Shown here piece by piece: positions 13,782 through 36,776 of a DNA stretch of 64,000 nt. The number at the start of each line of letters is the position of its first letter. Within the stretch, counting starts at the first letter, position 1. The DNA comes from Bugula neritina (lineage: Eukaryota > Animalia > Bryozoa). The position numbers and the translations under genes are program-made. Where the stretch lies: positions 11,728,698 to 11,792,697 of the forward strand of contig OZ037765.1 of assembly GCA_964035545.1 (NCBI GenBank), in the 5' to 3' direction. The notes under the pieces were generated by a model that did not search any database, was not told the DNA's origin, and worked only from the letters and a program-made list of their open reading frames with translations.

Positions 13782-14663
13782 TCAAATAAGTTTGTATTCC
13801 TCTACAGCAGAAGAAGGTATCAGCAAAAGAATTGGATGCTCTATTACTACCTTTCCATCAAGATTGTCTCGTAATGTTTTATTTTGATCAAAAAGATAAA
13901 TGGCTTTGGGTTGATTTAAATGTTCTGCGAGCATGCCAATACACATTGACGCTAATGTAGCACCTCCTGCTTCAAATTGGCCACCAAAAGCTCGTTCAAA
14001 CTCTGACCGGAATAATAGTCGACTAGTGAGCTCTGAGACACAATCATCCTTCTCAATTAGAGTTTTTGATTGCAATGAACCGCTAAGTGGTTTTGTACAA
14101 GACAAAGTCTTGTTTGATTCCGTTCCATTTTGATGTTGAGTCATCAAGTTCTCCAACATTTCCTTAATCTTGAGATCTTCATCAACTTTCCGGTCTTCAA
14201 CTTTACGATTATTGAGAACCCACCGAACATGCCAAAACATTTTAGTGCTGCTGTTCACCTTTCTAGGAAGGTTGCAATTACAGAAGGTGCTGTTGGATTT
14301 CCTACGAGCGGTGAGAAAAGGGGCAAGGCGGTATTCGATGTTTCTTAGAGAGGCAGCTTTGCTGAGCTTAGCCAATACCATTTTATTACAATTTAAATGT
14401 TCTGCAGGTTTATTCAGCACACTGTATGCAACACTATCATCCCATTTAGCTCTTTTTGCCGTACGCTCTAGAAAGTTAATGTCATCTTTTAAATTCGCTT
14501 CATTAAATTCTTGAAGAGATATGTAGGACGTAACATTACGTTTTCCGTTGCATTCAGTGTTTTTCTTGTGCATTGTCACACACTGTAGTGAGCAGGTTCG
14601 TATGGAGCACCTCGGGCAACAGTATATTGCTTCTTTGTCACCACAAACTTTACAAATTTGCAT
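13782..14663 (-). CDS. ZNHIT6: Box C/D snoRNA assembly protein BCD1 (zinc finger HIT domain-containing 6)
   Basis: N-terminal zf-HIT CKVC..CPRC..TCSLQCVTMHK, then C.GKR..YI...F....L..D..FLE, RRK.NST, FWHVRW and C-terminal TLRDNLDGKVVIEHP. Single 293-aa ORF. Confidence 0.9.
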   Translation of the reverse strand: MQICKVCGDKEAIYCCPRCSIRTCSLQCVTMHKKNTECNGKRNVTSYISLQEFNEANLKDDINFLERTAKRAKWDDSVAYSVLNKPAEHLNCNKMVLAKLSKAASLRNIEYRLAPFLTARRKSNSTFCNCNLPRKVNSSTKMFWHVRWVLNNRKVEDRKVDEDLKIKEMLENLMTQHQNGTESNKTLSCTKPLSGSLQSKTLIEKDDCVSELTSRLLFRSEFERAFGGQFEAGGATLASMCIGMLAEHLNQPKAIYLFDQNKTLRDNLDGKVVIEHPILLLIPSSAVEEYKLI

Positions 14664-15138
14664 TTTGAAATGTTAGTCTAGTCAAATTTCTAATTAATAA
14701 GAATTATTATCAAATTCAGACTTACTTACGACTATCAGCCATGCTTTTTATTTGTTCGATGAGCTCTCGAGTACAATGCGTGTTATGACAACAGGTCAAT
14801 TACACCTTAATTTATTCTACAGTTTTCTATTTTAGAAAAGATTACTCCTGATTATTACAAAACAAACTTACGCCGAAAAGACAATTCTTAATTATTTAGC
14901 TCAACATTTCGAATATAGTAGCCATCCATTGATTAATAAAGCAGAAAGTGGTCAATAACCAGAATGAACCACTTACAGTTGTAGAGAATTTAACCTGAAG
15001 AATAAATCCATACCAGCTGATCAAGCTCTCTTAAGATTTTCAAATCCATTTCAAACCTAAACTTATAGACAGTTAGAAAACTTGGGCTATTGAAAGTTCT
15101 TTGTTACTGCCCTCAGTGTAGGGTAAATTTTAAGATAC

Positions 15139-15286
15139 TGTTATGCTTTTCAGAATTAGGGTCGATGTGCAACCAAGAGAGTCTATTTATTACTAGAGAA
15201 ACTTCACCGTGATGAGTCGAGTAGATATCGTTATATTTGAATACAAGAATACATAATAAAATCTAATACACAACAGTTAATAATAC
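15139..15286 (-). repeat. Element A 3' LTR, distal part (R/U5)
   Basis: Matches 29777-29924 with 2 substitutions; contains a minus-strand AATAAA. Confidence 0.95.
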
Positions 15287-15591
15287 TGTTATGATTTTCA
15301 GATTTAGGGTTGATGTGCTATCCAGAGAGTCTATTTATTTACTATAGAACTGCACCAGGATAAGTCGAGTGAACGAGTATATTTTACCCACAATTATACA
15401 TCATAAAAACGATACATTATTTCCAAACAAGTTACACATCTAATCTATTTCACACTCTAGCTTCGACTGAGTTAGCAGCGGGAAACTACAATTGCTGCTA
15501 ACTATCAACTACGCTAATTGGCTATTCATTGTTCCGGGTCAATTACGCGACCCTACATGTTGTGCTGCTGGTAGTTCCACGAACCACCACA
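15287..15591 (-). repeat. Element B 3' LTR
   Basis: Identical to 22463-22767; preceded on the minus strand by polypurine tract GGTGGGGGCGG (15592-15602). Confidence 0.95.
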
Positions 15592-15877
15592 CCGCCCCCA
15601 CCAGCAGAAAGCCATCTTTCTGATATATATAAAAAAACATTCATTAATAACTACATACATCAGTGGACAAAAATAACACATAATATACAGAAAGAGACAT
15701 AATAATAATACAGAGTCATCGTAACGATCCGTTGCATACAATTGGCCAGCTGTAGATAGACGAGGAATACTAGCTAGCTGTGGTGTTAGACAGGGGATAA
15801 CCTGTTAAGCAGTCAAACATTTACATGACCTCTTGGCTTCTCCCAAGAGGCGGAGTTGGAGTACTCCGGGTAGTCAA

Positions 15878-16665
15878 CTAGAGTCCTTGTTGGGCACGCC
15901 GGTGCTTGGCTTGGCATGTACGCAGTTTCCGTTTCATACGGCATACGGATCCCTTCAGCTGGAAGAGTCCTGTTGTAGTGTTAAGTAGATCTGGTGCCAG
16001 CTGGGTGAATTCTTCTTGTAATCGCAGAAGGCGTTCTTCTACTGTGGCTAGGCGTACTGGGTCTGGGGACGGTGTCCGTCTGCGGCGCAAGGGTGGACTG
16101 GGGGACCTGGTCCGTCTCTTCGTCGGGGTAGGGGAGATCTCTCCTTCTTCTGGATATGTAATTTCCTCGGGGGTGTATGTAATTTGAGGGCGGTCAGACA
16201 CCAACGGGGATTGTTGGCGGGCGTTGTCTAACACACGTTGGAACCCCGAGGACAGAACGGCTAACAGCATGGCCTTCTTCACCAGAGGTCGTATAAGTGT
16301 GAGGAACTCCGGGTATAGCTTAGCGTCGACCACGTAGTTTTCTCCAGGGAAACAGCCCGCCGCTCTGTGTCTGGTGACGGGGTAGGGATACACATCATTG
16401 TACCCGCAGGGGCAGAATGTCAGTAGGAGATGAGCATTGACGTGTAGTTTAAGGGAGCGGTGAGAGGCGCAATCTTCACCACAGATCTGGCATCTCGTCC
16501 GTCCTCTGGACCCCCAGGCTGTTTCTATTTCTTCTTCTGTTTGTGGAGACACCCACCGCCAACGGCGGTGTAGTGGCTCAGGCCGGTCACCGCTAGCAAA
16601 CTCCTCTGGATACGGAGCGGGAAGTGTTCTATCCCGTACCCTGGTTGTAGCGGGTCGAGTGTAAT
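15878..16665 (-). CDS. Element B accessory gene, predicted exon 2: C2H2 + C2HC zinc fingers, R/S/P-rich segment, coiled coil
   Basis: CQIC-x12-H-x3-H, CPC-x12-H-x4-C, SPTPTKRRTRSPSPPLRRRRTPSP and heptads LATVEERLLRLQEEFTQL. There is no ATG at the ORF start; it is preceded by TATTAAC...CTTTTTCAG, a splice acceptor. Confidence 0.85.
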
Positions 16666-16979
16666 CTGAAAAAGTTTCAACAGTGTTAATACAGTACACT
16701 GCTGTGTTGTCAGCTTGAACAGCTTGGCAACTCCTAATTCAGTTACCTCGTAGAGATTTATGGTAGTGAATAGTCAGATAGAACACGTATTGCAATGAGA
16801 TTATAAAAATCTCTAAGTCAAATTGAGTTCTTACTACGGTATTTCACTAACCTATCTCCAGCTCGATTGACTCAGTGAGTCAGAGCTGAGCGATGCACTC
16901 TAGTTTCGTATTAAGATATAGTTAACTCACCCCACGATCTGTTGTCGTAAGACATACTGAATGTGTGAAATGGTTTGAA

Positions 16980-19900
16980 CTACTGCTTAGAAACACGTCT
17001 ACTCCTGACTGCATCAGCGTATGAAAAGATCGAGCAACGTGGTTGGGGTGCGTGATTAAGACTTTGTGCACCCGGCGGATGAATTTTATTTCTATTTCCG
17101 CCGATGCAAAAGTTGATATTTCCGTGGTGTTGACAACTCCCACATTTGCTCGATTCTTTTCTCGTACGGTTTTCCCCTAGACTTTCATGCGTGCCGCTTT
17201 TAACGCAGTCACATATGAAGTCCTTCAAGTATGCGGGGGGTTGCCTCGTACGCTGTCCCCTTTCTAGGGGGGGTGACACGCTTGCCGGTTCGTTAGTAGG
17301 GGCCTCTAATGGCGTCTCTACTTCACCGTCAGCAGTCACCTCTTCTTGTTCTCCGGATGGAGCCCCTCCCTCCGTGGGGGTTTGCACTTCCGGAACCGGC
17401 TCGGTTTCTGGAAGTGATGGAATTAGACTTGGCGGTGGCGGACACGCTTCTGTTGACAAAAGCTGCCGCTCTTCTCTCACCAAGTTTTCCTCCCGCGGTA
17501 TGACCACTTCGTATTCAGGTCCATGCCGCCGTCGCCCGCGCGTTGTTGTCTGCCTCCTGGGCTCCAACAACGGGGGGGCTTCTCCCACTGCGTCGGGGCT
17601 AGCCCAATACGGTTTCAAGCGAGACTCATTCTGGATAGATACCTGTCCTGAGCGCTCAATCTTGTACGTGTGATTGGGCATAGCCTCGACAACCACGTAG
17701 GGGCCTACGAACTTAGGCTTCAGCTTATCAGCCTGTCCGCGGTGCCTACGGTAATTGACCATCCACACCTTATCTCCCCTTTGATAGAGGGGTGGTTCAT
17801 CGGAATCTTCGTGCCGCACCTTCAACTGCTGTTGGCGCAGTATATCGTGTGCGGCCTTCATCCGTTCCACTAGTTCACTGGCATACTCGTGGACTGAGTT
17901 ATCTTGCTCTGGAACGTGATAGGTGAGATGGTCGGGGACACGAGTCTCTCTCCCGAGCATCAAGAGGTTTGGGGTCTCACCAGTACTGGTGTGTGGGGTG
18001 CTACGGTATGCACGCATGACTTGCGGCAACACCGTATCCCATTCCTCTTGACCTCGTCCAAGGAGGAGACTCCGGAGCGCATCACCTAGCATCCGGTTGT
18101 TGCGCTCCACCACCCCGTTACCTTGAGGGTGGTAGGGGGTGGTCCTGCTCTGATTTACTCCCCAGAGGCGGCAAAGGTCGCTCATCAGTTGAGACTGGAA
18201 TTGAGCGCCTTGATCAGAGTGTATCTGTTCGGGGAGCCCAAAATAACAGAATACATGTTGGTCTAGTGCCCTGGCCACTGTTGGGGCTGACGCATCTGGG
18301 ATAGCCAGAGCATCCGCCCACCTAGTAAAGTGGTCGGTTAGTACTAGGATCCAATTATTGCCTCTGGGGGTCAGGGGCATGGGTCCGACCAGGTCTACAG
18401 CGACTACTTGCCAGGGTCTACCAGCGTATAGCCTCCGCCGTCCTGCTTCACCAGGGGGGCGGCTATGCTTACTGGCCTGGCAGATTTCACACTGTTTGAC
18501 TCTGAGCCGGACATCACGCTCCATTTGTGGCCAATACCACCGGAGTCGTAATTTGGACATCACTCGCTTGACCCCTGCGTGGGCCTGCTTGTGAGTATCC
18601 CAAATCAACTCACGGCGGATGGCTGTGGGGCAGACTACCCTCTTCCTTTCTGGGTGTCTGCCGCTGGCAGCTAGAGAGATGGTTAGCAGCCCATCCTGCC
18701 CGATCCGCAGCGAGTCCCAACGCTGACAGTATAGCCGGAACTCGGCGCATCCCTGTCGTATGCGTTCCTCGCTGGGTCGTCGCCCTTCCCTTTTGGCCCG
18801 GTATATGTCTGCCACGACTCCAGGCAGCTCTTCTTGGAGCTTCTTCAGCTCTCGAACATTACCGGCCAGTACAGGGTTGGCGCGGAGGTTTTGTACATCC
18901 TCCGGGGATTCATCAACTCTTTGCCTGAGTTGACCTTGATCCCAGTCAAACGGTGCTCCGTGATGAGCCAGCGTCTCCAACTCGCATCGTGGGGGACCTC
19001 CATCCCTCCTCTCGATGTTGAGACACTGTTTGCAACCTCCGTCAGGTCGACGACTCAAACCATCCGCATTGCTGTGTCTCTTGCCCGGTCGATGTTCGAT
19101 CCGGTATGAGAATTCAGCTAGGATTTCGAGCCACCGGGCGACCTGACTAGAGGGCTCTGCTCTCCTGCACAACCAGATCAGCGAGGCATGATCCGTACGC
19201 AGCCGGAACTTCCTGCCATATAGGTATGGTCTGAAGTGCTTCACTGACTTGATTACTGCCAGCAGCTCCTTGCGGGTAGTGAGAGAGACTTGCTGTAGTA
19301 GGCTACTACTACCTCTCGGCCTTCCTGCACTTGTGACAGCACAGCGCCAACATTCTGGTCACTGGCGTCCGTGTCTAGGATGTACTCCAGAGTGGGGTCT
19401 GGGTAGGCCAAGATGGGCGCCGTTAGGAGGCAGCCCTTGAGGCGGTCGAACGCTTCTTGTTCGACTGGAGTCCACTGCCACGTCACTCCCTTTGCGGTGA
19501 GCCGGTTTAACGGCTGGGCTATGCCCGCAAAGTCTGGTATGTATTGCCTGTAATACCCTACCAGCCCCAAGAAAGCCCGGAGTCCGGTCAAGTCTTGGGG
19601 GGTGACCCAGTCTTCTACTGCCCGTACCTTTTCGGGATCCGTTGCCACGCCGTTCCGACCGACAACGTGCCCCAGGTACTTGACCTCCGGCTGCAATAGA
19701 GCGCACTTGGAAGGTTTGAGCTTAAGACCGGCACCTCGGAGTCTCTCGAAAACCTCCTGCAGACGACTGACATGTGTCTCGAAGTCTGGAGAGATTACGA
19801 TGACATCATCGAGGTAGACCAGCAGTGTCTTCCAATGGAGTCCGCTAAGGACTTGTTCCATCAGCCTCTGGAAGGTGGCTGGGGCGGAGGTTAACCCGAA

Positions 19901-21529
19901 GGGCAGCACCTTCCACTTCCACAAACCGTCCCGTGTGATAAACGCCGCTTTCTCTTGGGCGTCGGGACTCAGAGGAACCTGCCAATAGCCGCTTAGCAAG
20001 TCTAACGTACTGAAGTACTTGCTGCCGGCTAGGGCGTCCAATGACTCGTCAATACGAGGTAGAGGGTAGGCGTCCTGTATGGTTACGCTATTGAGTTTGC
20101 GGTAGTCCACACAGAACCGCCAACTGCCGTCTTTCTTCCGGACCAGTACGACTGGCGAGCTCCACGCACTATGGGCGGGCTCTATCAGTCCCCGGTCCAG
20201 AAGATCCCGTACTTGTCGGCTAACCTCCTTCTCTTTCTCCGGCCCCAGCCTGCGCGTGGGCTGCCGGACAGGGACTGTCCCTGCAGTCAGCGGTATTTTG
20301 TGTCTGACAATTCCAGTCAGTCTCACGTCATGCTCTCCGCTGCTGAACACATCTCCGTAGTCGCGTAGTAACTTAGCCATAGCTTGGCGTTCCTTGTTAC
20401 TCGCGCAGCCGCCACTGGCTGTTTCATATAACTCCCGGAGATGTGTTGGGACTGCCCCTCGTCCCTGAATAGGGTGTCGAGGGAGTGCCTCCGTCGCATC
20501 ATCCAGCGACGGGCCTACGTCTCCCTCCTGAACAGAGTGAAAACGGCCCAGCATCGACCCAGCCGGGAGCTTGATAGGCTCGGTAAAAAGGTTGACGCAC
20601 TGCACTAAGATCTCCCCTTGCTCAGTCAGCTGATTCAGACTGCTGGCAAGTTGGATCTTTTCGTGCGCGCCTTCAACCACCCCGAGTCCAGAGATCCGGC
20701 TACTATTCACCCTGCAGTGAATGGTAGCCCGGGAGCGGCCTGGTATGGTACGGTTGCGTACCACTTGCACACCTCCCACTAAAGGGCGGCCGAACTTGTC
20801 GACGCAGGCGAGTTCCCGCCCGGACATCATCATTGCAGATCTGCTAAAATCTATGTGACATCCGTGCCGTTTAAGGAACGGCATCCCGAGGATAGCATCC
20901 TCCTTGAGCTGACTGACGATGAACGTCTCTTGGATCGTTTGATCGCGGACTCGTCCCGTCAGCTCAATTATACCATAGAAGGGAAGGCACGACCCGTCAG
21001 CTAGGGTGCCGTATTCCCCTTCGTATGCTTCCATCTCGCCCCTGACCCTAGCACTGAGGGTGTCGAAGAGTTGGTGGCTTAAGAGGTTTGTGGTACAGCC
21101 CGAATCAATGAGAAAAGTAACAGCTTTGCCTTCCAGTTTACCGGGCAAGAAATAGCTGTTCCCATGGGGCTGCACCTGAACTCTCCCTTCAGGCCTTACT
21201 CTCGCAGGGAGTACCTCCCTCGCTTTGGGTCGCGAAGGAGGTCTTTTGGGGCGGTGGTAGGTAGGCCTCGGGGGTGCCGAGGCTAGATTCTCAGCTACCT
21301 TTGTGTGCTCCCATCCAGATTCTTGGACTTGTAGCCCTGTGAATCTGTTGTGAAGGGGCATAGAAAAGGCAGCTGCGGGGCGAAGCCCCTTGCTGGTCCG
21401 TCGTGGCTGTTGCCACTGTTGGTTGCCAGTACGCGGTACCCGTCTGGGTGACCTGCGTTTCTTCTTCCCTGGAGGTTTCATCGTCGGCCCGCGGAAGGTG
21501 GGAACATCTGCGGGCCGCGGTAGTTTAAC
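16980..21529 (-). pseudogene. pol: Element B pol (protease, RT, RNase H, integrase) broken by a 22-nt frameshift deletion in RNase H
   Basis: LIDSG protease, YLDD RT, LDTDAS RNase H, HHCC and D,D-35-E integrase (VAVDLVGP, IHSDQG, GVVER), GPY motif. Relative to 26651-26672 of element A, 22 nt are missing at 19280/19281. Confidence 0.92.
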
Positions 21530-22431
21530 CCCTGATTTAGGAAGGGGCAATATCGGCGGAAATGTCCTTGATTTCCGCACTCCCAGCAAAAACTGACTGT
21601 TTCTCCCTGTGGCGGCGCCGATGGCCGCATGGGCTCAGGGGCGGTACTCACTGGGGTTTGTGGTGTCAGTGTTGCTATCAGCTTGGCTAGCATGTCTGTC
21701 AGTTGAGTGACTTTCGATGCCGTCGCCAACTGGGACACGGCAGCCGCGGCGGGGGTTTCCTCCCCTTGTCCTGCGGCCGTGTCTGCGCGGTCTATCTCCA
21801 CTTGACGGGAGCTTCCGCGACTTTTATGCATTTGATTAGCTAGGAGGTAAGCTTCCCCCTCAGTCAGAGCATCTTCAACGGTGGTGACTCCCCTAGCTAG
21901 AAACTGGTGGTGGAGACCCAGATCGTCGACAGATGCTATGAAAGCGTCGAGGGTATACCTCTCGCGGTTGACTGGGGGCAAGTCGTTGTACGCGATCTGT
22001 GCCAGCTTCATGACCGCGGCGGCGTGCTCCCGCAGCGGGGTGCGGGGATCACGCCGCAACCTCTGCAATCGGGCCCTGGCATCTGTAGCAGAGAGGCCGA
22101 AGCGGGCCCGCAGAGAAGCAAAGATATTATCAATGTCTACGCCCAGCCCATAAGGCTTGGCTTTGTCCATCAATGCCATTCTAAGCTTCAGCAAGGCCAC
22201 CCTAGGGGGCCACTGGGCGACGTCCATTACGTCGCTAAGCTCTTGGATAAATTGTTCCACCTCCTCTTCACCCGTGAAGGTGGGCGCTTTTAACCTGTAG
22301 CGGTCCTCAGCTAGTTCTCGCGGAACTCTTCGCTCTTCTACTACATGGTTAACAGGCATTGTCTCTACAGCATTGTCTCTACGCTCACCTTCGATTGCCG
22401 GTGGTTGAGTTCCAGCATTTTCAGTCTCCAT
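21478..22431 (-). CDS. gag: Element B gag with CCHC zinc knuckle
   Basis: 317 aa; LKAPTFTGEEEVEQFI capsid-like start and CWECGNQGHFRRYC knuckle; begins just after the PBS. Confidence 0.92.
   Translation of the reverse strand: METENAGTQPPAIEGERRDNAVETMPVNHVVEERRVPRELAEDRYRLKAPTFTGEEEVEQFIQELSDVMDVAQWPPRVALLKLRMALMDKAKPYGLGVDIDNIFASLRARFGLSATDARARLQRLRRDPRTPLREHAAAVMKLAQIAYNDLPPVNRERYTLDAFIASVDDLGLHHQFLARGVTTVEDALTEGEAYLLANQMHKSRGSSRQVEIDRADTAAGQGEETPAAAAVSQLATASKVTQLTDMLAKLIATLTPQTPVSTAPEPMRPSAPPQGETVSFCWECGNQGHFRRYCPFLNQGLNYRGPQMFPPSAGRR
21485..21529 (-). promoter_or_regulatory. Predicted -1 ribosomal frameshift signal of element B (G_UUA_AAC, 5-nt spacer, GC hairpin)
   Basis: Heptamer 21529-21523 is in gag phase; stem CGGCCCGC/GCGGGCCG; the -1 frame reads VKLPRPADVP into pol. 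Confidence 0.75.
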
Positions 22432-22443
22432 CTTGGATGCACT

Positions 22444-22461
22444 ATCTCACCGCTGCCACCA
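22444..22461 (-). promoter_or_regulatory. Primer-binding site of element B, tRNA-Leu
   Basis: Minus strand TGGTGGCAGCGGTGAGAT, 1 nt after the 5' LTR; complementary (1 mismatch) to the 3' end of animal tRNA-Leu(AAG/UAG), ...AUCCCACCGCUGCCACCA. Confidence 0.85.
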
Positions 22462-22462
22462 C

Positions 22463-22767
22463 TGTTATGATTTTCAGATTTAGGGTTGATGTGCTATCCA
22501 GAGAGTCTATTTATTTACTATAGAACTGCACCAGGATAAGTCGAGTGAACGAGTATATTTTACCCACAATTATACATCATAAAAACGATACATTATTTCC
22601 AAACAAGTTACACATCTAATCTATTTCACACTCTAGCTTCGACTGAGTTAGCAGCGGGAAACTACAATTGCTGCTAACTATCAACTACGCTAATTGGCTA
22701 TTCATTGTTCCGGGTCAATTACGCGACCCTACATGTTGTGCTGCTGGTAGTTCCACGAACCACCACA
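22463..22767 (-). repeat. Element B 5' LTR
   Basis: TG...CA ends; on the minus strand: CCAAT (22697-22693), 10-bp inverted repeat (22646-22679), TCAGTC initiator-like motif (22646-22641), AATAAA (~22515-22510). Confidence 0.95.
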
Positions 22768-22771
22768 ATAC

Positions 22772-22929
22772 ACACGTCTATTTAATTTACAGCACTATCC
22801 TCAACTGGGCTAGTAGCGCGAAGCTGCTACTATTATTTATAAGCAGCTTAGCTAATTGGCTAATACATCGTTCCGGGTCAATACGCAACCTTGCGTATTG
22901 TGTTGCTGGTAGCTCCACGAGCCACCACA
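22772..22929 (-). repeat. Element A 3' LTR, proximal part (U3/start of R)
   Basis: Matches 29925-30075 apart from 1 substitution and a 7-bp indel; preceded on the minus strand by PPT GGAGGGGGCAG (22930-22940). Confidence 0.95.
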
Positions 22930-23206
22930 CTGCCCCCTCCAGCAGAAAGCCCTCTTTCTGATAAAAATATAATTCACATAAAAAAACGTATACATCGGTG
23001 GGCAGATAGAGAACAGTACAAAAGTATATACAAGAGCCAACTGATTAGAGATACAGGTATATATATATAAAAAAAATATGTACAATGAATGATGCAAGTA
23101 TGTAAAAGAAAGTCTTATTTACATGTAGAGTACGTGCCACCGTAACGGAAGGAAATGCCACAGAAAGGTAGGGGAAGAGTAGTATGGAGTTGGAGATGGA
23201 CTCAGG

Positions 23207-24000
23207 TTAATCGTGGGCCGCCCGCTTCATGCGTTTAATAGACTCCTGTAGATACTTGAGTTCGCTGGATGCAGCATGCACGCGCGGGGCCAGTCTATAC
23301 ACTTCTTGCTCCAGGTCGTGTGCCCTAGCTTCTACTTCACGTAAGTTGCGGGCCAGAGGGGATGAACGAGAGAAAGCCTGCTGTCTGTGCCTTTTTCGTT
23401 CTGAAGATGGAAGTGGGGAAGGGAGCGTATATGCCTTCGTGTCTACCCTCTGTAGTACGACACGGGGGAGTGTATGCGGTTGGCGTATAGGACTGAGAGG
23501 TGGGGAGTTAGCTGATTTTGTAGGCTTATCCATGATTTCAGAGATGATGGGTCGAGGGGAGGGAAAGCCTTGCTCCAGGCGAGACAGCCGAGCCGAGTCG
23601 GTGATGAGGGGTCTGATGGCGTTAAGGAATGCGGGATATGATGATTTGTCTACTTCATAGATGTGTCCTTGAAAGCACTGCATAGTGCGTTGGTGACGCA
23701 GTAGATAATCACGATTGTAACTATATTCTCCGCAGGGGCAGAACGTTGTGTTGTAATGCTGCGGCAAGTGGACTCTCAGCCTACGATGGGTTGTAAACCG
23801 CTGCTGACATAGGCGGCATTCGCGGTTACTGTCATCTCCTCTATGAGTCTTAATCTCCTTCTCTGTGGCAGGGGTAGTCCAGTTAGAGGTTGCTTCCAAC
23901 TGGGGTGGTAGTTGTCTGGTTGTGGAAGTTGGTGGGGCCGGCTCTGGGTCCCACGCCATCTCTAGAGAAGGCATGCCCGGAGAGACGGACGCGAGTGTGT
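23207..24000 (-). CDS. Element A accessory domain/gene, predicted exon 2: C2H2 + C2HC zinc fingers, S/P/R-rich segment, coiled coil; also in frame with integrase
   Basis: CRLC-x12-H-x3-H, CPC-x12-H-x5-C, YEVD...YPAFLNAIRPL, LREVEARAHDLEQEVYRLAP...IKRMKR. Homologous to 15878-16665. Acceptor ATCTAAC...CTACTTTTGCAG ends at 24001. Confidence 0.85.
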
Positions 24001-27000
24001 CTGCAAAAGTAGAATTATTGTTAGATCGCGGTGGATCTTTACAACATAATTCTAGTGACTGTCGACTGTTACTAGCCTGAGAGTCACAACTTTTGGAATG
24101 CACTCGAAGAACCAGTGAATCATGTGTGGACTGACCAAGAACAGTGTCTAGCTCCAGGTCTAACAGACCGTCGGCCATTACAGTGTCTTCATCGTCATTC
24201 ACGTGAAACGTGGTTCCCAGTAATTCTGATTCAATCTGGTGAATTAGTTCAGAATTTACTGGCATCGAGCCCGTTTCCATGGATAGGAATACAAGACTTA
24301 TACTGGCCTTACCTGTGAACTCGGTATTAATGTCCATACTCAACGTTCTTGGTAAGATTGGAGCTGGTTGTGAGATACGTCTGCCTTTGGCGATGTCAGC
24401 GTAAGAAAAGGCTGAGCATCGTTTCTGAGGCACGAGGTCGGAACTATTTGCTTTACGCGCATTAATTCCTCCCACTATTCCGCCCTCGCAAAAGTTGATA
24501 TTTGCGTGGGGTTCACAACTCCAACATTTTATCGTACGGTTTTCCCCTAGACTTTCATGCGTGCCGCTTTTAATGCAGTCACATACGAAGTCTTTTAAAT
24601 ATGGTGGGGGTTTCCTCGTACGCTGTCCCCGTTCTAGGGGGGGTGATACGCTCGCCGGTTTATTAGTAGGGGCCTCTAATGGCATCTCTACTTCACCGTT
24701 AGCGGTCACCTCTTCTTGTTCTCCGGATGGAGCCCCTCCCTCCGTGGGGGTTTGCACTTCCGGAACCGGCTCGGTTTCTGGAAGTGATGGAATTAGACTT
24801 GGCGGTGGCGGACACGCTTCTGTTGACAAAAGCTGTCGCTCCTCTCTCACCAAGTTTTCCTCCCGCGGTATGACTACTTCGTATTCAGGTCCATGCCGCC
24901 GTCGCCCGCGTGTTGTTGTCTGCCTCCTGGGCTCCAACAACGGGGGGGCTTCTCCCACTGCGTCGGGGCTAGCCCAATACGGCTTCAAGCGAGACTCATT
25001 CTGGATAGACACCTGTCCTGAGCGCTCAATCTTGTACGTATGGTTGGGCATAGCCTCGACGATCACGTAGGGTCCCATGAACTTAGGCTTTAATTTGTCA
25101 GCTTGCCCGCGACGCCTACGGTAATTGACCATCCACACCTTATCTCCCGTTTGGTAGAGAGGTGGTTCCTCGGAATCTTTGTGCCGCACCTTCCACTGCT
25201 GTTGGCGCAGTATATCGTGTGCGGCCTTCATCCGTTCCACTAGTTCACTGGCATACTCGTGAACCGAGTTGTCTTGCTCTGGAACGTGGTAGGTAAGATG
25301 GTCAGGGACACGAGTCTCTCTCCTGAGCATCAAGAGGTTTGGGGTCTCACCAGTACTGGTGTGTGGGGTGCTACGGTATGCACGCATGACTTGCGGCAAC
25401 ACTGTATCCCATTCCTCTTGGCCGCGTCCAAGGAGGAGACTCCGGAGCGCATCACCTAGCATCCGGTTGTTGCGCTCCACCACCCCGTTACCTTGAGGGT
25501 GGTAGGGGGTGGTCCGGCTCTGATTTACTCCCCAGAGGTGGCAAAGGTCGCTCATCAGTTGAGACTGGAACTGAGCGCCTTGATCAGAGTGTATCTGTTC
25601 GGGGAGACCAAAATAACAGAATACATGTTGGTCTAATGCCCTGGCCACTGTTGGGGCTGACGCATCTGGGATTGCCAGAGCATCCGCCCACCTAGTAAAG
25701 TGGTCGGTCAGTACTAAGATCCAACTATTGCCTCTGGGGGTCAGGGGCATGGGTCCGACCAGGTCTACAGCGACTACTTGCCAGGGCCTTCCAGCATATA
25801 GCCTCCGCCGTCTCGCTTCACCAGGGGGACGGCTATGCTTACTGGCCTGGCAGATCTCACACTGTTTGACTCTGAGTCGGGCGTCACGCTCCATTTGTGG
25901 CCAATACCACCGGAGCCGTAATTTGGAGATCACTCTCTTGACCCCTGCGTGGGCCTGTTTGTGAGTGTCCCAAATCAGCTCACGGCGGATGGCAGTGGGA
26001 CAGACCACCCTCTTCCTTTCCGGGTGTCTGCCGCTGGCAGCTAGAGAAATGGTTAGTAACCCATCCTGCCCGATCCGCAGCGAGTCCCAACGCTGGCAGT
26101 ATAGCCGGAACTCGGCGCATCCCTGTTTTATGCGTTCCTCGCTGGGTCGTCGCCCTTCCTTTTTGGCCCGATATATGTCTGCCACTACTCCAGGCAGCTC
26201 TTCTTGGAGCTTCTTCAGCTCTCGGACATTATCGGCCAGTACAGGGTTGGCGCGGAGGTTTTGTACAACCTCCGGGGACTCGTCAATCTCCTGTCTGAGT
26301 TGACCCTGGTCCCAGTCAAACGGTGCTCCGTGGTGAGCCAGCGTCTCCAACTCACATCGCGGGGGACCTCCGTCCCTTCTCTCGATGTTGAGACACTGTT
26401 TGCAACCTCCATCAGGTCGGCGGCTCAAGCCATCCGCATTGCTGTGTCTCCTGTCCGGTCGATGTTCGATCCGGTAGGAGAATTCAGCTAGGATTTCGAG
26501 CCACCGGGCGACCTGACTGGAGGGCTCTGCTCTCTTGCACAACCAGATCAGCGAGGCATGATCCGTACGCAGCCAGAACTTCCTGCCGTATAAGTATGGT
26601 CTGAAGTGCTTCACTGACTTGATTACCGCCAGCAGCTCCTTGCGGGTAGTGCAGTAATTTCGTTCAGCGGGTGAGAGAGACTTGCTGTAGTGGGCTACTA
26701 CTACCTCTCGGCCTTCCTGCACTTGAGACAGCACAGTGCCAACATTTTGGTCACTGGCGTCCGTGTCGAGGATGTACTCCAGAGTGGGGTCTGGGTAGGC
26801 CAAGATGGGCGCCGTTAGTAGGCAGCCCTTGAGGCGGTCGAACGCTTCTTGTTCGACTGGGGTCCACTGCCACATCACTCCCTTTGCGGTGAGCCGGTTT
26901 AACGGCTGCGCTATGCCCGCAAAGTCTGGTATGTATTGCCTGTAATACCCTACCAGCCCCAAGAAAGCCCGGAGTCCGGTCAAGTCTTGGGGGGTGACCC

Positions 27001-28872
27001 AGTCTTTTATCGCCCGTACCTTTTCGGGATCCGTTGCCACACCGTTTCGACCGACAACGTGCCCCAGGTACTTGACCTCCGGCTGCAATAGAGCGCACTT
27101 GGAAGGTTTGAGCTTAAGACCGGCACCTCGGAGTCTCTTGAAAACCTCCTGCAGACGACTGACATGCGTCTCGAAGTCTGGGGAGATCACGATGACATCA
27201 TCGAGGTAGACCAGCAGTGTCTTCCAATGGAGCCCGCTAAGAACTTGCTCCATCAGCCTCTGGAAGGTGGCTGGGGCGGAGGTTAACGCGAAGGGCAGCA
27301 CCTTCCACTTCCACAACCCGTCCCCTGTGATAAACGCCGCTTTCTCTCGGGCGTCGGGACTCAGACGGACTTGCCAGTAGCCACTCAGCAAGTCTAACGT
27401 ACTGAAGTACTTGCTGCCGGCTAGGGCGTCCAATGACTCGTCAATACGAGGTAGAGGGTAGGCGTCCTGTATGGTTACGTTATTGAGTTTGCAGTAATCC
27501 ACACAGAACCGCCAACTGCCGTCTTTCTTCCGGACCAGTACGACCGGCGAGCTCCACGCACTATGGGCGGGCTCTATCAGTCCCCGGTCCAGAAGATCCC
27601 GTACTTGTCGGCTAACCTCCTTCTCTTTCTCCGGCCCCAGCCTATGTGTGGGTTGGCGGACAGGGACTGTCCCTGCAGTCAGCGGTATTTCGTGTCTGAC
27701 AACTCCAGTCAGCCCCACGTCATGATCTCCGCTGCTAAACACATCACCGTAGTCGCGTAGCAACTTCGCCATCGCTTGGCGTTCCTTGTTGCTCGCGCAG
27801 CCGCCACAGGCTGTTTCATATAACTCCCGGAGATGTGCTGGGACTGCCCCTCGTCCCTGAATAGGGTGTCGAGGGGGCGTCTCCGTCGCGTCACCCAGCG
27901 ACGGGCCCACGTCCTCTTCCTGGACGGAGTGGAACCGGCCCAGCATTGACCCAGCTGGGAGCTCAATGGGCTCGGTAAAGGGGTTGACACACTACACTAA
28001 GACCTCCCCTCGTTCAGTTAGTCGGTTTAAACTACTAGCGAGTTGGATCCTTTCGTGCGCGCCTTCAACGACCCCGAGCCTGGCTATCCGGTTGCTGTTC
28101 ACTCGGCAGTGGATAGTAGCTCTGGAGCGTCCGGGCACGGTGCAGTTTCGCACTACCTGAACACCGCCCACCAGAGGACGCCCAAACTTATCCACACAGG
28201 CGAGTTCTCGCCCGCCCATCAGCACCACCGACTTGCTGAAGTCTATTCGGCACTGGTGTTGCTTCAAGAAGGGCATTCCGAGGATAGCATCTTCCTCCAG
28301 TTGGCTTATGAGAAAAGTCTCCTGTACAGCCTGGTCTCGGACACGCCCAGGGAGCTCGATAATACCGTAGAATGGAATACATGACCCGTCTGCCAGGGTG
28401 CCATGTTCCCCCGTATACGGTCGTACTCTATCCCTGTCCCGGCGGGGCAGTGCCTCAAAGACTCTACGACTGAGAAGATTAGTAGTACAACCGGAGTCGA
28501 GCAGGAAAGTGACGGCGTTGCCGGCCACCTTTCCGGGTAGGAAATAGCTCTCTCCATGTGGTTGTACTTTCACCCCCCCCGCATGTGCTGTCCTAGATTG
28601 GTAGGACGGCGGGGGTTTCACCCGTGGTTTACGAGGTTTCCGGCGGCAAGGTTGGTGCCGGCGGGGTTTGGGGCTCTCCACTGGGCCTTCCGGCTCCATT
28701 TCAGTGGCGGGCTCCTCCTCCTGAGGTAACCGGTTCCACCGGTTGGCGAGTGGCAGGGAGAAGGTACTTGGCCGTTGTGAGGGCCTGCTAGTCCTGCGTG
28801 GTACCTGCCACTCGGGGGGAGTGTTCCGTCGTGTCCGTACGGACAGACGACGGCGTGTCCCACCAGACTCTT

Positions 28873-29742
28873 TCAGTTGCGGCCCGCGGGGAGGGAGAGC
28901 GTCCGCGGGCCGTGACAGTTTAACGCCCCCTGGTATTGGGGTCGTCCTTTCTGTCCATGGTCCTGACCAGCACTACTCCAGCCCTGCCTCACAGGTGTTG
29001 GGGGCAACCGCAGGGCCTGACCGGGGCCAGCGCCGGCCAGAATTGTTACCAGCTGTCCCAGCATCTCTACCATACGGTCCACTTCGGCTTCCAGCGGGGG
29101 GGGGGCTTTGGGGCCTGTCGTGGCCCTGGCAGCACTGACTCCAACTACTGGTGGGTTCCGTTGTGCTCGATGCATTTGGGTAGCCAACAGGTAAGCTTCT
29201 CCAGCCTTCAGGGCATCCTCTATTCTGGTTATCCCTTTAGCTCGAAGTTGATGGTGTAGGCCCAGGTCGTTTAGTGACTGGACAAAGGCGTCGTATGTGT
29301 AACGCTCTTGGGGTGGCACTGGTAGGTCACCATACGCAATCTGTGCCAGCTTCTTCACCGTCGCGGCATGTTCTTGCAGCGAGGTCCGCGGGGTGCGGCA
29401 CAATCTCTGTAGCTTGGTCCTAGCGTCTATTGCGGAGATGCCAAAACGGGCCCGCAGCGCAGCCAGTATCCCGTTTACGTCCGTTCCCACTCCGTACGGC
29501 TTGGCTTGCTCCGTCAACGCTCTCCGCAATTGGATAAGGGCCACTCTATGCGGCCATTGAGCAATATCCATTACCTCACTAAACTCTTGTATAAACTGTT
29601 CGACATCTTCTGACCCAGTAAAGGTGGGAGCTTTCAAGCAATATCTATAAGCTTCTTCTCCCTCACGATTCACAGGATTAACATCATTTCTACGCTCACC
29701 TTCTACTGGGGGTGGTTGCATTCTAGCATTTTCAGTCTCCAT
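28873..29742 (-). CDS. gag: Element A gag, zinc knuckle degenerate
   Basis: ATG at 29742 (METENARMQPPPVEGERR); homologous to element B gag (LKAPTFTG..VEQFIQE, ARFG.SA.DAR..LQRL, DLGLHHQ). Confidence 0.9.
   Translation of the reverse strand: METENARMQPPPVEGERRNDVNPVNREGEEAYRYCLKAPTFTGSEDVEQFIQEFSEVMDIAQWPHRVALIQLRRALTEQAKPYGVGTDVNGILAALRARFGISAIDARTKLQRLCRTPRTSLQEHAATVKKLAQIAYGDLPVPPQERYTYDAFVQSLNDLGLHHQLRAKGITRIEDALKAGEAYLLATQMHRAQRNPPVVGVSAARATTGPKAPPPLEAEVDRMVEMLGQLVTILAGAGPGQALRLPPTPVRQGWSSAGQDHGQKGRPQYQGALNCHGPRTLSLPAGRN
28880..28924 (-). promoter_or_regulatory. Predicted -1 frameshift signal of element A (G_UUA_AAC, 5-nt spacer, 10-bp GC hairpin)
   Basis: Heptamer 28924-28918; stem CGGCCCGCGG/CCGCGGGCCG; the -1 frame is in frame with the protease ORF at 28699. 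Confidence 0.75.
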
Positions 29743-29756
29743 CTTTGATGTACACA

Positions 29757-29775
29757 AATCCCACCGCTGCCACCA
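29757..29775 (-). promoter_or_regulatory. Primer-binding site of element A, tRNA-Leu
   Basis: Plus strand AATCCCACCGCTGCCACCA equals the 3' end plus CCA of animal tRNA-Leu(AAG/UAG); 1 nt from the LTR. Confidence 0.9.
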
Positions 29776-29776
29776 C

Positions 29777-30075
29777 TGTTATGCTTTTCAGAATTAGGGT
29801 CGATGTGCAATCAAGAGAGTCTATTTATTACTAGAGAAACTTCACCGTGATGAGTCGAGTAGATATCGTTATATTTGAATACAAGATTACATAATAAAAT
29901 CTAATACACAACAGTTAATAATACACACGTCTATTTAATTTACAGCAATATCCTCAACTGGGCTAGTAGCGCGAAGCTGCTACTATTATTTATAAGCAGC
30001 TTAGCTAATTGGCTAATACATCGTTCCGGGTCAATACGCAACCTTGCGTATTGTGTTGCTGGTAGCTCCACCACA
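29777..30075 (-). repeat. Element A 5' LTR
   Basis: 299 bp, TG...CA; minus-strand CCAAT, TTATAAA TATA-like box, hairpin TAGTAGC/GCTACTA, AATAAA. Confidence 0.95.
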
Positions 30076-30891
30076 ATACTAAACTAATAGCTAATGCTTA
30101 TGCAGTCTTAAGATTTTTGCAAAGTTGCACAATGTAAAAATTTAATTAAATGGAAAAAAGATGTTATGCAATATTATATATTTTTTGCTGATATTAATGC
30201 AGCACTATTAAATTTTGCACAATTAGTCAAGTTTGAACAAATAGATTGGAAAAAATTGACGAAATTCATGATTTTGAATTGAAAAGATCTTATTAAATGT
30301 TGCCATAAATCTGTAATCATATATAATGAGTGTTTAAATTTATATTTTGTTTTAGAAGAGCTTGCATGTAGCAAAAATACATTATATCATAAGTCTGTTA
30401 AACTATGATATAATGTATTATAGTTTTATTCAATCAGCAATTGGTTTAGTCTTAAAGCTGCTTAGGAGAAAAAGGCAAAATGGGCGAAATTTTTGTTATG
30501 AAACATCAGCAAGAAGTGATAGACTGGTCAAACCAGTGTTCTCATATTGAGTTGCAACTTAACAAATAAATTTGCATAAATTAAAATACACAATATATTG
30601 AAACTATGCAAAAATAACAAAATTTTAACCACCATTCAAGTTATTTTGATTATTAAAAGTTTTTGCAAGACAGTGATAACATGGTGTTTACCTTGTATAT
30701 AAAATACTTGTCAGCTGGTCTCTTTGATATTTAATTCTTGCGACGTTTGTATATGAGAGATTTTTGTTTTGTGGGTAAAGCTTTATTTTAGTGAAAACAC
30801 TCAGCGTCTGCTGTGCATGGTCAGAAGTTTCTAAGCAGCCATAAAGCTAGGTTGTAAAATCTTTTTAACCTAATTATGCATTTGTCTGTAT

Positions 30892-31027
<136 letters not shown>

Positions 31028-32319
31028 TTTAGATATCCACCTCAACCTCACAAACGAGATATACCAACCATATAACAAACCAAGGCCACAAAGAAGGACA
31101 TATGCAACATTTTCAAGCAATATGGATTAGGAATCACAATTGAGGCAAATAAAAAGACAGTAAATTTTTTAGATATCCACCTCAACCTCACAAACGGGAT
31201 ATACCAACCATATAACAAGCCAAACAATATCCCCACATATGTTCATGCAAAATCCAACCACCCACCATCTATTACTCGCAACATTCCAGAATCCATAAAT
31301 AGACGACTCTCATCCATCTCATCCAACTCCACCACATTCAACAACAACACAGCAATCTACCAACAAGCACTCATTAAAAGCGGATACAATCATAAGCTAA
31401 ATTTTCACACACCCGCAGAGGTCACAAAGAAACCAAATCGTAGAAGGAAGGTAACATGGTTTAACCCTCCTTTTAGTAAAAACGTAACTAATAACATCGG
31501 AAAAGAGTTTATCAAAATCATCAGCGAGGAGTTTCCTCCAAGCCATGAACTCTACAGAATTTTTAATAGGAAAACATTAAAACTGTCATATAGCTGCATG
31601 CCCAACATAGCAGCAATCATAAATGGTCACAATAAGAAAGTATTGAAATCAGAAGAACATGAACACCACACAAAGCCATGTAACTGCAAAACTAAAAACA
31701 ATTGCCCACTGAGTGGCCAGTGCTGCACTGAGGCTGTCGTTTACCAGGCAACAGTCACAAACAACAACAACACAGCAGTAGAGACATACGTGGGACTAAC
31801 CCAGAACCAGTTCAAGTATCGATACAATAACCACACAGCCAGCTTCAAAAACACCAGTAAACAAAACTCTACTGAGCTGAGCAAATATATCTGGAAATTA
31901 AAGAACAATAATATAGCTTATGAGATAAAGGGGAAAATTCTAGCCAGAGCACAACCATGCAACAAGCAGTCACCACTCTGCAAGCTGTGCCTGCTAGAAA
32001 AATACTTTATAATTTGCAAGCCACATCTATCCTCACTCGACAGCCGTAATGAGATCATAACAACATGCAGGCACGCTAGAAATCTCCTCCTAGAGAATGT
32101 GACTTGACATTTTAATCTCTTAATTACTTTTATTCCATCTATTTATGTATTTTAATCCATTGGCTTTATAGCTTTTACACACATTTCTCATACATATATA
32201 TAGTATGTTTTTATTCTTGTTACACTACATCTTAACATTTTATCTGAAGATTGTGTACATTCAATGCACATGAAACTAGTAGTAATAAAGTGTTTTAAAT
32301 CAAATTTTATCGTTCATTA

Positions 32320-33754: not shown

Positions 33755-36700
33755 CTACTCACATGCTAATTTACTATCAAAACTGCTCAAGGCTATAGCA
33801 AATGCTTGCAAAGCACACATTGGATATCTATAATCCATAGTGAACACATCTTCTGCAACTCGGCCAAATTGCATGACAATATAATCCACGTCATTGTCGT
33901 GAACAATTTGAAAATTTTTAACAGAAGCATGAGTGACCCGGCCATGAAAATTAAGCACGTATGATTGAGTTTCCTCATTCCACACAGGCGTTTTGTTGTG
34001 TAGTTCAATAAGATTTTCCATTTGCTTGCGTTTCCATCGGTTCACAATACCTTCATTTTCATTGCTAGGCTGAACTTCCACCCGATCTTGATCCAGGTTC
34101 ATGCCAGGAATTATGCAACTCATTTTTCTGGGACCTTTAAATCCTAAGACATTTGTGTCATACACAATGGCAGCCAACTCCTTCCTAAGACTTTGTCCGG
34201 AGCCTTTGCCGGGAGCCTCACCATTATCAAACACGGTGAACTGAGTGCCCAGCCTATTAGAGCGTAGTTTCCCTACGTAGGTGTCGCTCTCTCTCCCTAA
34301 ATCAGTGGGATCAATAGAGATAAGGTAGTTACTAGTAGCACTCTTTTTACGCTTTCTTCCAGCCAATAGAAAGATTTTTCGGTTATCTTCTCTCTCCATG
34401 TGAAGGTAGTACGTTGGGTACATGGTCCTATCCACTCCCTTCTTATCTCTGGTTATTCTGCATTTAATTTGCGTATGTTGTGCAGCAGGCCGCAATACAA
34501 ATGCTTCCAAGCTGTCAGTTGGATCAAAAGTAGTGTTGAATGCTTCATCCCCTCCACCAGAGGCTAATTCTCTACAAAATTTTTAACAAAAAATTAAACT
34601 TAGCAAAATTTGAGCCTTTTTATCTACGTTAGTTTACATTTTTAAGCTACACTTACTTTTTAAAATGCATTTTATTAATTATAAAACAAAAGTATATAAA
34701 AATTATTAATAATTGAATAACGATTTAGTCAACAATAAAACAAAATTAAATTGAGTTTTATTTTGTAAAAAGTATTGCAGTGTAAGAACTGTTCTGTTTG
34801 TACTTATAGCATATATGAATGCACAGAGCCTCCCTGCAACTTTTCGTTAAAATATATGATTTGCAATGAAAAATAAAATAATAGAACAAAAGTGTAAAAA
34901 CCGAATGTTTACCAGAAATGTATACTAACCGTTTGTTGTTGACTGCAGAAATATCCCGAGTGTTTGTGAATACATCTGGTGGACTACTAGGCTGTGCCTC
35001 CTGAAATTATCACAAAATTAGGGCCATAAAACTTAAGCACATAACATAATAACCTCATAATGAGGCCATTTGTCAAGGTTAATTGATTAACTAGGCTATT
35101 TATGGTTAACTAAGGACTGTGAATTACAGCTAGCTTTCAGATTTTCTAATCTGATCAAAACATCTAGTACACTAGAACTAGACATATAAAAACAAAACCT
35201 CACAGGGGTAACAATTGCTGCTATTCATTTATGCAAGTGTATAATATTACTTCAAACCAAAACCGGTATTGTCTAAGCTGATGTTTATTTAAGGCATTCT
35301 ATAAGATTCTAACATACAATGGTTATACAGCATTTGGCCTACAAATAGTACAAGCAACGTTAACTTTTTATAAGATCTGTTGTATTCCACCCTGTTGATA
35401 ATGGGTAATTAACTGATAACTGATAACAATTTACATCTCCTGACCTCATGTGTAACTGGCACAACCACCTGGCATTTTTACCACCACAATAAAAATCTTA
35501 ATTATAACTGATTCAAACAAAAATTGGCCCAAATTTTAACCTGAGCCATCAAATTTTCTTTATGAAAAAGGCACTGAGACACTGGGCACTAGTTGCTATT
35601 ACTAGTTAACTGGTAACTCTTTTATTAACTCAATTTATAGCTTGCAGCTACTCTAAATATTACATCTACTATGGGAAATGAATTACCACAGGCACAGGTG
35701 TTCACAGCCCTACAATTGAAAATTTTCGAGACACCCCAGAGCTCAGTTGATACTGTAGCTTTTACTGCACAAGTAATCATCTCTTCAATTACTGGCAACG
35801 CAAATCAGCTGAGTAGGGGGCATGTAACAAAATACGACATTGAAAACTAGATGCATAAACATGCAGGAACTTTCATCATAAAAACAATAACATTTTACTG
35901 AGCTGTAGCTGCAGGGCTGAGACTAATATATTTAGTGACTGTGTGTCACCATACTGCTAGTGAAGAGATATGTGAAAATCAATATACTCTATCATATTCA
36001 TCACTCATATTCAGCTTAATTTCCATAAAAACTGATTACTTTAACAACCAGGCAACTAATGACTAAAATCTAAAATAGCTGATGAAAACTTAACATGTCT
36101 TATATACCTAATGACTGAAACGTACCTGAGTAATGTTAGAGTCAGGTATAACTGCTGTCTCCAACTCATCTTCATCTTCAGACCCAAAAGCTTGCTTCTG
36201 TTCGACTACTTGCGCTTTGGGAGGCACAACTTCCTCGGCTTCGCGCCGATTTTTTTTCTTTGATTTCTTTTGCTTTTGTGGTGGAGGCTGTTGCACTGGC
36301 TGCTCTACGGGTTTTGGTGGAGTTTGCATTTGGTTAGTGGATAGATTGCTAGCCTGGCTCTGGGATTTCTTGGGAAGAGAAATATTTGAACTCACAATGT
36401 CACTTTCGGATAGGGATCCATCAGATTCATCTATGACATCAGGTGGAGCCACATTCACTACTTTTACACTTGTACCAACCGGTTCCGCAGTTTCCCCATT
36501 ATCATTGTAAGCTTCCGGATTATCATAGGCATATCTACTTGCACCTTCCGAGGGTTCAGACGAATTATTTACCAGTGGAGTTTTTCCATCTCTCTTTCTA
36601 GCACTTGACACTTCATTTCGCTCAATTTTTCCTAACTGGTGTCTCCGCTTCTTTTTTTCTTGTTGCTCCCTGAGCCTTCGTTGTCTTTCAAGTTGAGCCA

Positions 36701-36776
36701 TCCTCATGTCATTGGCAGGGGAGTCCGATCGGATTTCATTGTCTACCAAGCCAGGAGGTGTTCCCCACTCAGACAT
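33755..36776 (-). CDS. TUB: Tubby-family protein (TUB/TULP), 3 coding exons
   Basis: Exons 36776-36126, 35000-34930 and 34571-33755 join in frame. N-terminal [17 protein letters not shown] segment; tubby domain [33 protein letters not shown], ending FDSKLACE. Confidence 0.95.

Follow-up and report, generated by a model that had tools for sequence, protein, structure and literature searches.

What kind of gene occupies the env position of two Ty3/gypsy retrotransposons in the bryozoan Bugula neritina, and how is it expressed? The two elements, referred to as A and B, lie on the minus strand of a 64,000-nucleotide (nt) stretch of contig OZ037765.1 (the window, to which all coordinates refer), in an AT-rich, intron-bearing animal genome. 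Each carries an additional coding region between integrase and the 3' long terminal repeat (LTR). This region is a real, conserved accessory gene of an unnamed zinc-domain family and, judging from its splice signals and relatives, is very probably spliced to a short leader encoded at the start of gag.

Probable splicing of the accessory exon to the Gag leader

The initial annotation had proposed that the accessory exon is joined to the first 43 nt of gag, and all of its splice coordinates, phases and lengths proved correct. Both elements have a GAAG/GTGAGC donor (the slash marks the junction) 43 nt from the gag ATG (22431 in A, 29742 in B), after 22389 and 29700 respectively and in phase 1, as well as phase-1 acceptors, TTTTTCAG/16665 in A and TTTTGCAG/24000 in B, and a branch point (TTAAC in A, CTAAC in B) with its branch A 21 nt ahead of the exon start. 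The long introns between leader and accessory exon measure 5723 nt (A) and 5699 nt (B), and the joined frames of 831 and 837 nt encode 276 and 278 amino acids. A filter chosen after the sites had been seen, requiring a T-rich YAG with a YTAAY branch point, retains 1 of the 279 YAG sites in A and 2 of the 246 in B, with the predicted acceptor included each time. The predicted acceptors exceed chance. The statement that the element B region lacks an initiating ATG had to be corrected: it is in the 15878 exon, of element A, that no early Met occurs (first Met at residue 132), and the 23207 exon has upstream Mets and shares an open frame with pol (open reading frame, ORF, 23207-27991).

Splicing to the Gag leader is supported by a natural form among the relatives together with the patterns at donor and acceptor. 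The protein P0023, encoded on a JGI contig of 5320 nt, consists of a Gag leader of 14 residues followed by the accessory exon, with the join exactly at the predicted junction. Its first 14 residues are identical to the start of the gag relative P0206, and after the leader it has the exon-2 start of the genomic relative P0028; 17 of 120 gag relatives match this leader at at least 12 of its 14 positions. Among the 282 proteins of the accessory search the leader is present in P0023 only (score 73; next 34), and the sibling records begin at Val or Leu, or read through the intron. The gene caller behind these records appears to ignore introns, so that P0023 would be contiguous on its contig, which would then derive from RNA or carry a retro-copy of the spliced form. 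Scans of viral, metagenome and genome contigs gave no confirmed DNA locus for the relatives.

Residues compatible with the splice signals also persist in relatives, conservation of these signals having been a requirement of the initial annotation. Of the 120 gag relatives listed, 75 lack a readable N-terminus; among the other 45, 41 retain a donor-compatible residue pair (G/GTRAG) after leaders of 14 (22 relatives), 10 (18) or 9 (1) amino acids, against a background of 2.3% per position with five positions allowed; the variants are Ser and Arg, codons of which retain GT. Just ahead of the exon, unspliced gene calls have Leu, Val or Ser, all with codons able to retain NYA/G. Of 74 B-type relatives examined, 44 have the motif and every one of them fits; 72 A-type relatives gave 23 motif hits, of which 20 fit, the remaining three being P0023 and two mis-hits. 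The background for these residues is 12%. Because Leu, Val and Ser alternate, what is kept seems to be the AG rather than an amino acid. There is little doubt in our view that the Gag-leader splicing is real.

A further donor had been missed by the initial annotation. In both elements an ATG directly after pol is followed 25 nt on by a phase-1 donor (A 16955-16931; B 24337-24313), which is 1 of 11 GTRAG sites in each element. Neither the alignment between the two mini-exons nor that with the pol tail needs a gap, although the eight codons differ; the B-type relative P0295 begins with a similar peptide, but without the donor-compatible Gly. Splicing out the 265- or 312-nt short intron is predicted to give proteins of 270 and 272 amino acids without the Gag leader.

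The short intron of B is an open frame with a length that is a multiple of 3, and its translation is acidic and Leu-rich, a stretch common to 23 of 39 B-type relatives; by our own estimate, at a 3.4% stop fraction, about half of the lineages could keep it open by chance. Conservation of this translation among the relatives is 0.72, versus 0.47 in the adjacent exon linker, yet its substitutions are non-conservative (mean BLOSUM -0.56, versus -0.40 for neutral changes and -0.05 in the zinc core). Constraint may thus act at the nucleic-acid level, possibly on a cis-element, and the substitution pattern gives no support to a coding status for the stretch. Folding of the short introns is too unexceptional to serve as evidence for a structured response element of the Rev type: they fold at z -3.3 and -3.5, yet z values of -3 or below occur in 9 of the 28 windows of element A, and the introns have no Rfam match.

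An unnamed zinc-domain family in the env slot

The accessory exons of A and B are homologous (31% over 245 amino acids, E 2e-29), and both were correctly described as carrying C-x2-C-x12-H-x3-H and CPC-x12-H-x4/5-C fingers and a predicted C-terminal helix or coiled coil. The description of the product as a non-env protein without a membrane segment also holds: peak 19-residue hydropathy is 1.5 (A) and 0.42 (B), no dedicated signal-peptide or transmembrane predictor having been applied, no env family is found in Pfam at E<=1, and a soluble zinc core with a coiled coil is predicted instead of a glycoprotein. The label RS-rich was overstated: a basic, S/T-P-rich tract (9 and 7 SP/TP) is the better description, and each exon has 3 RS/SR dipeptides rather than the long RS/SR runs of SR proteins. 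RMKR does not stand at the C-terminus.

Searches yielded 72 A-type and 63 B-type homologs, and a profile search yielded 310 clusters at 50% identity, 121 of them at E<=1e-10; the profile matches considered are the best 150 of these 310 clusters. The shared core comprises W-x4-T-x3-I, C-x2-C-x11/12-H-x3-H, [FY]C-x-CG-x11-H and Y-x-V-D, with a variable fourth ligand at the second zinc site. Across all 51 rows, which are 18-37% identical to the first row, the first Cys pair, the first His and the second Cys of CxC never vary. Both fingers pack into one compact predicted domain (predicted local distance difference test, pLDDT, 93.6; predicted template modelling score, pTM, 0.83), in which the linker is short and position 6 of the helix keeps a hydrophobic residue, in contrast to typical DNA-reading finger arrays. 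Downstream of the core a disordered basic S/T-P tract and then a long helix are predicted, and a C-terminal heptad segment is found in 17 of 30 profile hits, versus 0.2 in shuffles. At the sequence level, long-term conservation of the gene is supported.

No Pfam family spans the zinc domain, and generic zinc-finger matches are weak: the classical finger families (PF00096/PF13894) score 12.6-15.9 bits on the window proteins, below the curated cut-offs of 25.2 and 27, with canonical finger spacing, and the two-copy homolog P0300 passes the Pfam cut-off. Foldseek found nothing in PDB or BFVD at E<=0.001 (E 0.88 or more), VIA-align matched the full model to coiled coils alone (best Z 5.8) and the core to nothing above Z 4, weak fold matches that are no proof of a new fold, and the ESM Atlas returned unnamed clusters at 0.90-0.94 plus generic C2H2 clusters, with no informative taxa. 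The first finger resembles Kruppel-type C2H2 fingers in its canonical spacing, and the second resembles the fourth, C2HC finger of plant BIRD/IDD proteins (PF22992) in its CxC-x12-H spacing. These resemblances are weak (Kaiso Z 4.0; JACKDAW E 8; PF22992 in 1 of 51 at E 0.07), and the accessory fingers differ in being predicted to pack with flanking helices in one 130-residue domain, over the whole of which no known finger match reaches threshold. The family is undescribed in the literature searched; Repbase, Dfam, GyDB, subscription journals and supplements lay outside that search, and a prior repeat-library entry is possible.

The wider family is tied to retroelements, since 8 profile hits or cluster members carry retroelement parts in the same ORF as the zinc domain: an integrase tail in P0292, P0373 and P0391, integrase pieces or pieces preceding the reverse transcriptase (RT) in P0357 and P0397, and a gypsy protease in P0379, P0387 and P0401. 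The last three are single ORFs of 833-1208 amino acids with protease and zinc domain and no RT or integrase match, and are possibly non-autonomous elements. P0267, P0300 and P0364 have two zinc-domain copies per protein and no retroelement part; from this composition, they are possibly domesticated host genes.

Export, transactivation and other possible roles

Retroviruses and errantiviruses express env by splicing from near the 5' end. The accessory gene resembles spliced env in its slot between integrase and 3' LTR and in its splicing from near the 5' end (PMC13524379, available sections). It differs in encoding a protein of ~270 amino acids with no hydrophobic anchor, and with zinc fingers instead of a glycoprotein ectodomain. 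Complex retroviruses have small, basic, nuclear accessory proteins, Rev/Rex/Rec and Tas/Tax, whose spliced genes lie towards the 3' end. The accessory protein is similarly small, spliced, basic and predicted to be oligomeric and nuclear, with its gene near the 3' end (for Rev, the available sections of PMC10309623), but its carrier is an LTR retrotransposon, it has no clear leucine-rich export signal, and searches of Pfam, PDB and BFVD gave no match for it. An additional ORF after pol is also known from gypsy elements of bdelloids and plants; in the available sections of PMC5408684 the ORFs named are, in contrast, env-like, GDSL and DEDDy, and 'zinc' and 'finger' occur 0 times in its main text.

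Another comparison is with CERV, the env-slot ORF of the Caenorhabditis elegans Ty3/gypsy element Cer1, whose spliced mRNA shares the Gag N-terminus (PMC10309623). As far as the available sections of that paper report, CERV localises to the nucleus, genomic RNA depends on it for export, its Cys-rich loop is required for this, oligomers are predicted, an essential phospho-site is ascribed to a proline-directed kinase, and no homolog outside nematodes is mentioned; Cer1 genomic RNA has to skip consensus splice sites (PMC3315495, likewise in part). On these accounts the likeness extends to the gypsy carrier, a non-env ORF in the env slot, a spliced mRNA with the Gag N-terminus, a final exon that, like that of element B, shares the frame of the polyprotein, a Cys-rich part, a helical oligomerisation part and a basic nuclear signal, and the splice signals and P0023 indicate just such an env-slot ORF spliced to Gag N-terminal sequence. 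The differences are that CERV has 517 amino acids, 5 exons and H, M (C4-type loop) and G-protein-like domains, whereas the accessory protein has ~277 amino acids, 2 exons and a C2H2 + CxC-x12-H core; no G-like fold was found among the fold-search matches, the separation from CERV being by description and not by direct alignment. Since CERV's described domains were not seen in it, the accessory protein is probably an independent solution. The concept of a gypsy env-slot protein spliced to Gag is already known from CERV, and what may be new is the zinc-domain family itself. The proposal of a nuclear regulator of a kind unrecognised in Ty3/Gypsy elements accordingly stands in its first half, as zinc fingers, basic tract and coiled coil fit a regulator, and gives way to CERV in its second; the protein probably does serve the element as a functional nuclear regulator. 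Among transactivation of the LTR, RNA export, targeting and anti-silencing, the four functions it listed, the initial annotation had made no choice.

The third gene is conserved and, in at least one natural relative, joined to the first 14 codons of gag (10 in other subfamilies). For its product we tentatively favour a role resembling that of Cer1 CERV or retroviral Rev, with a nucleic-acid-binding protein, predicted to be nuclear and oligomeric, that would help unspliced genomic RNA to evade splicing and reach the cytoplasm. Because its gag donor and the acceptor after pol are both strong, the element must limit splicing or retention of its genomic RNA. LTR transcription would first give the short spliced RNA, whose protein would enter the nucleus via its basic tract (basic runs are present in the accessory protein). 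The coiled coil at the C-terminus would mediate oligomerisation, and the zinc core would contact element RNA with its basic face. Build-up of the protein would shift output to unspliced gag-pol RNA that skips the strong donor and acceptor, and a second route, from the ATG mini-exon after pol across the 265/312-nt intron, would supply a form without the Gag leader. Export or anti-splicing as the step acted on is suggested more tentatively still, as first choice because of the CERV-like gene logic, the basic zinc domain, the oligomerisation helix and the many proline-directed sites.

Several observations weigh against this favoured reading. P0023 is one record, and behind it may stand assembled RNA, a retro-copied spliced transcript or, with lower probability, a deletion that arose by chance. 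The homologs share descent and are mostly probably from few host species, so that their counts are not independent events. Variants between copies of the accessory exon are synonymous in 6 of 16 cases, versus ~28% under neutrality, with no clear signal of selection. The check for RNA junctions, which the initial annotation had called for, was made on X1, an RNA run (share 0.14), and X2, a run of unrecorded kind (share 0.53): neither predicted junction is among the 15 of 93 joints listed for X1 (26 low-depth contigs), which has no contig on the A acceptor, and none of the X2 loose ends (6 of 9 listed) is a gag leader, but assembled contigs of these runs cannot prove absence of a junction. Matches to a leucine-rich export signal in the two exons of the window occur only inside the zinc core or N-terminal linker. 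By fold, the nearest matches are tandem C2H2 fingers that bind DNA (best Z 4.0, root-mean-square deviation 2.9, 57 aligned), and acidic Leu-rich patches resembling activation domains precede the core, so that a transcription factor also fits.

A DNA-binding transactivator of the element's own LTR, in the manner of foamy-virus Tas, is accordingly a close second, possible though doubtful. The zinc core would bind U3, the coiled coil would dimerise and an acidic patch would activate, retention of the 312-nt intron adding such a patch in B-type elements. Besides the fold and sequence matches to DNA-binding C2H2 fingers and the lack of an export signal outside the core, this explanation can draw on acidic W/F/Y/L-rich 39-mers, defined by a rule of the activation-domain literature: 23 of 39 B-type relatives carry one ahead of the core, where shuffles give 13.0, as do 15 of 42 profile hits, where 6.3 would be expected, and downstream they are found in just 0 of 39 and 4 of 39; the open, triplet-length short intron of B and a common stretch beside CCAAT in the LTRs of A and B agree with it. 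However, every structural match is weak, A-type relatives are without the acidic patch (0 of 2 long N-termini), and the substitutions in the B stretch are no more conservative than random single-base changes, so that it may be non-coding.

Less probable is a role in chromatin protection or placement, with the protein acting as an anti-silencing factor or as an integration-targeting partner also made as a C-terminal extension of integrase. The B exon lies in the pol frame with no stop between, distant relatives have an integrase tail in the same ORF, and both insertions are in GTAT. On the other hand, A has a stop after integrase and a closed frame, protease-only fusions carry no integrase within the ORF, and the conserved splice signals and P0023 indicate an integrase-free product.

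That the gene is a captured host zinc-finger fragment, carried as passive cargo with chance or decaying splice signals, is very improbable, for although the two-copy proteins P0267, P0300 and P0364 and the unseen RNA junction (joints listed for X1; A acceptor) agree with it, the zinc ligands are invariant across deep branches, the donor and acceptor patterns are conserved, and P0023 is a natural spliced form.

The nested elements, their surroundings and significance

Element A sits inside the 3' LTR of element B, a nested rather than side-by-side arrangement (Table 1). The elements show the features of Ty3/gypsy retrotransposons, with LTRs, primer-binding site, polypurine tract, target duplication, gag and a pol of protease, RT, RNase H and integrase (PR-RT-RH-IN), the domain order given by Pfam. 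The A LTRs show 0 differences over 305 bp, and 296 of 299 aligned bases match between those of B. A GTAT duplication borders both insertions, which suggests a target preference of these elements. Both copies have a broken pol, by a frameshift in the RNase H region in A and an in-frame stop between protease and RT in B. Pol is 90-95% identical between A and B (17096-21175 versus 24478-28567), and gag, LTR and accessory gene are far more diverged; since identity in RT-IN (94.6%) is far above that in gag (66.5%) and the accessory exon (54%), pol has probably been swapped between subfamilies by recombination.

Table 1. Positions of the parts of elements A and B in the window
Element	Feature	Position	Strand	Details
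B	5' LTR	29777..30075	-	299 bp, TGT...ACA
B	GTAT duplication	30076-30079 and 15135-15138
B	Primer-binding site	29759..29776	-	presumably tRNA-Leu-like
B	Exon 1	29700..29742	-	43-nt Gag leader; donor GAAG/GTGAGC at end; phase 1
B	gag	28873..29742	-
B	pol	24370..28972	-	PR-RT-RH-IN; no stop between IN and accessory exon
B	Mini-exon	24313..24337	-	ATG + 22 nt (8 codons + 1 nt); donor CAG/GTAAGG; phase 1
B	Short intron	24001..24312	-	312 nt; branch CTAAC 24021-24025; acceptor AG 24001-24002
B	Accessory exon	23207..24000	-	794 nt including stop; linker, zinc core, basic S/T-P tract, coiled coil
B	Polypurine tract	~22930-22944		directly upstream of 3' LTR
B	3' LTR, part 1	22772..22929	-	interrupted by element A
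B	3' LTR, part 2	15139..15282	-
A	5' LTR	22463..22767	-	305 bp
A	GTAT duplication	22768-22771 and 15283-15286
A	Exon 1	22389..22431	-	43-nt Gag leader; donor GAAG/GTGAGC at end; phase 1
A	gag	21478..22431	-	weak CCHC knuckle match
A	pol	16980..21634	-	PR-RT-RH-IN; stop at 16980-16982
A	Mini-exon	16931..16955	-	ATG + 22 nt (8 codons + 1 nt); donor GGG/GTGAGT; phase 1
A	Short intron	16666..16930	-	265 nt; stops in accessory frame
A	Short intron signals	16685-16689; 16666-16667	-	branch TTAAC; acceptor AG
A	Accessory exon	15878..16665	-	788 nt including stop
A	Zinc core (compact)	~16160-16570	-
A	Coiled coil	~15881-16060	-
A	Polypurine tract	~15592-15606
A	3' LTR	15287..15591	-

GTTAAAC in the gag/pol overlap of both elements (21523-21529; 28918-28924) is a candidate -1 frameshift site, and the most structured window of element A, 21171-21435 (z -7.4), lies ~90-350 nt downstream of it. 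Adjoining the insertion, 13782-14672 is an intronless host gene with zf-HIT and BCD1 domains. By eye, 31076-32107 holds an ORF reminiscent of a Penelope-like element, with an RT end and a GIY-YIG endonuclease, alongside a long (TA)n run, and host exons resemble a tubby-family gene (33755-36794), a furin/PCSK-like membrane protein (1010-2248), an exosome subunit (41230-41562) and a DEAD-box helicase (61944-62264). Repeats include a 16-bp tandem array (5042-5770) and a ~390-bp repeat family (46082-47361).

The export of unspliced RNA and self-regulation are understood for very few intron-bearing LTR retrotransposons, and Cer1 CERV is the only comparable gypsy accessory protein found in the literature searched. 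The zinc domain is newly available for annotation, in a small protein with exact predicted junctions. If the favoured reading is true, an unrelated zinc-finger family with hundreds of divergent relatives uses the same slot and splicing logic, and Rev- or Tas-like regulators arose more than once outside retroviruses. A bolder and unlikely extension is that a widespread invertebrate gypsy lineage became 'complex' independently of both retroviruses and Cer1, with a zinc-domain master regulator of the Rev or Tas type under a two-donor switch, and that protease-only derivatives, and perhaps hosts by domestication, have kept the domain. Such a switch would set a Gag-leader form made by removal of the long intron beside a mini-exon form made by removal of the short one, and B-type elements would make a third form that keeps the short intron and with it an acidic activation patch.

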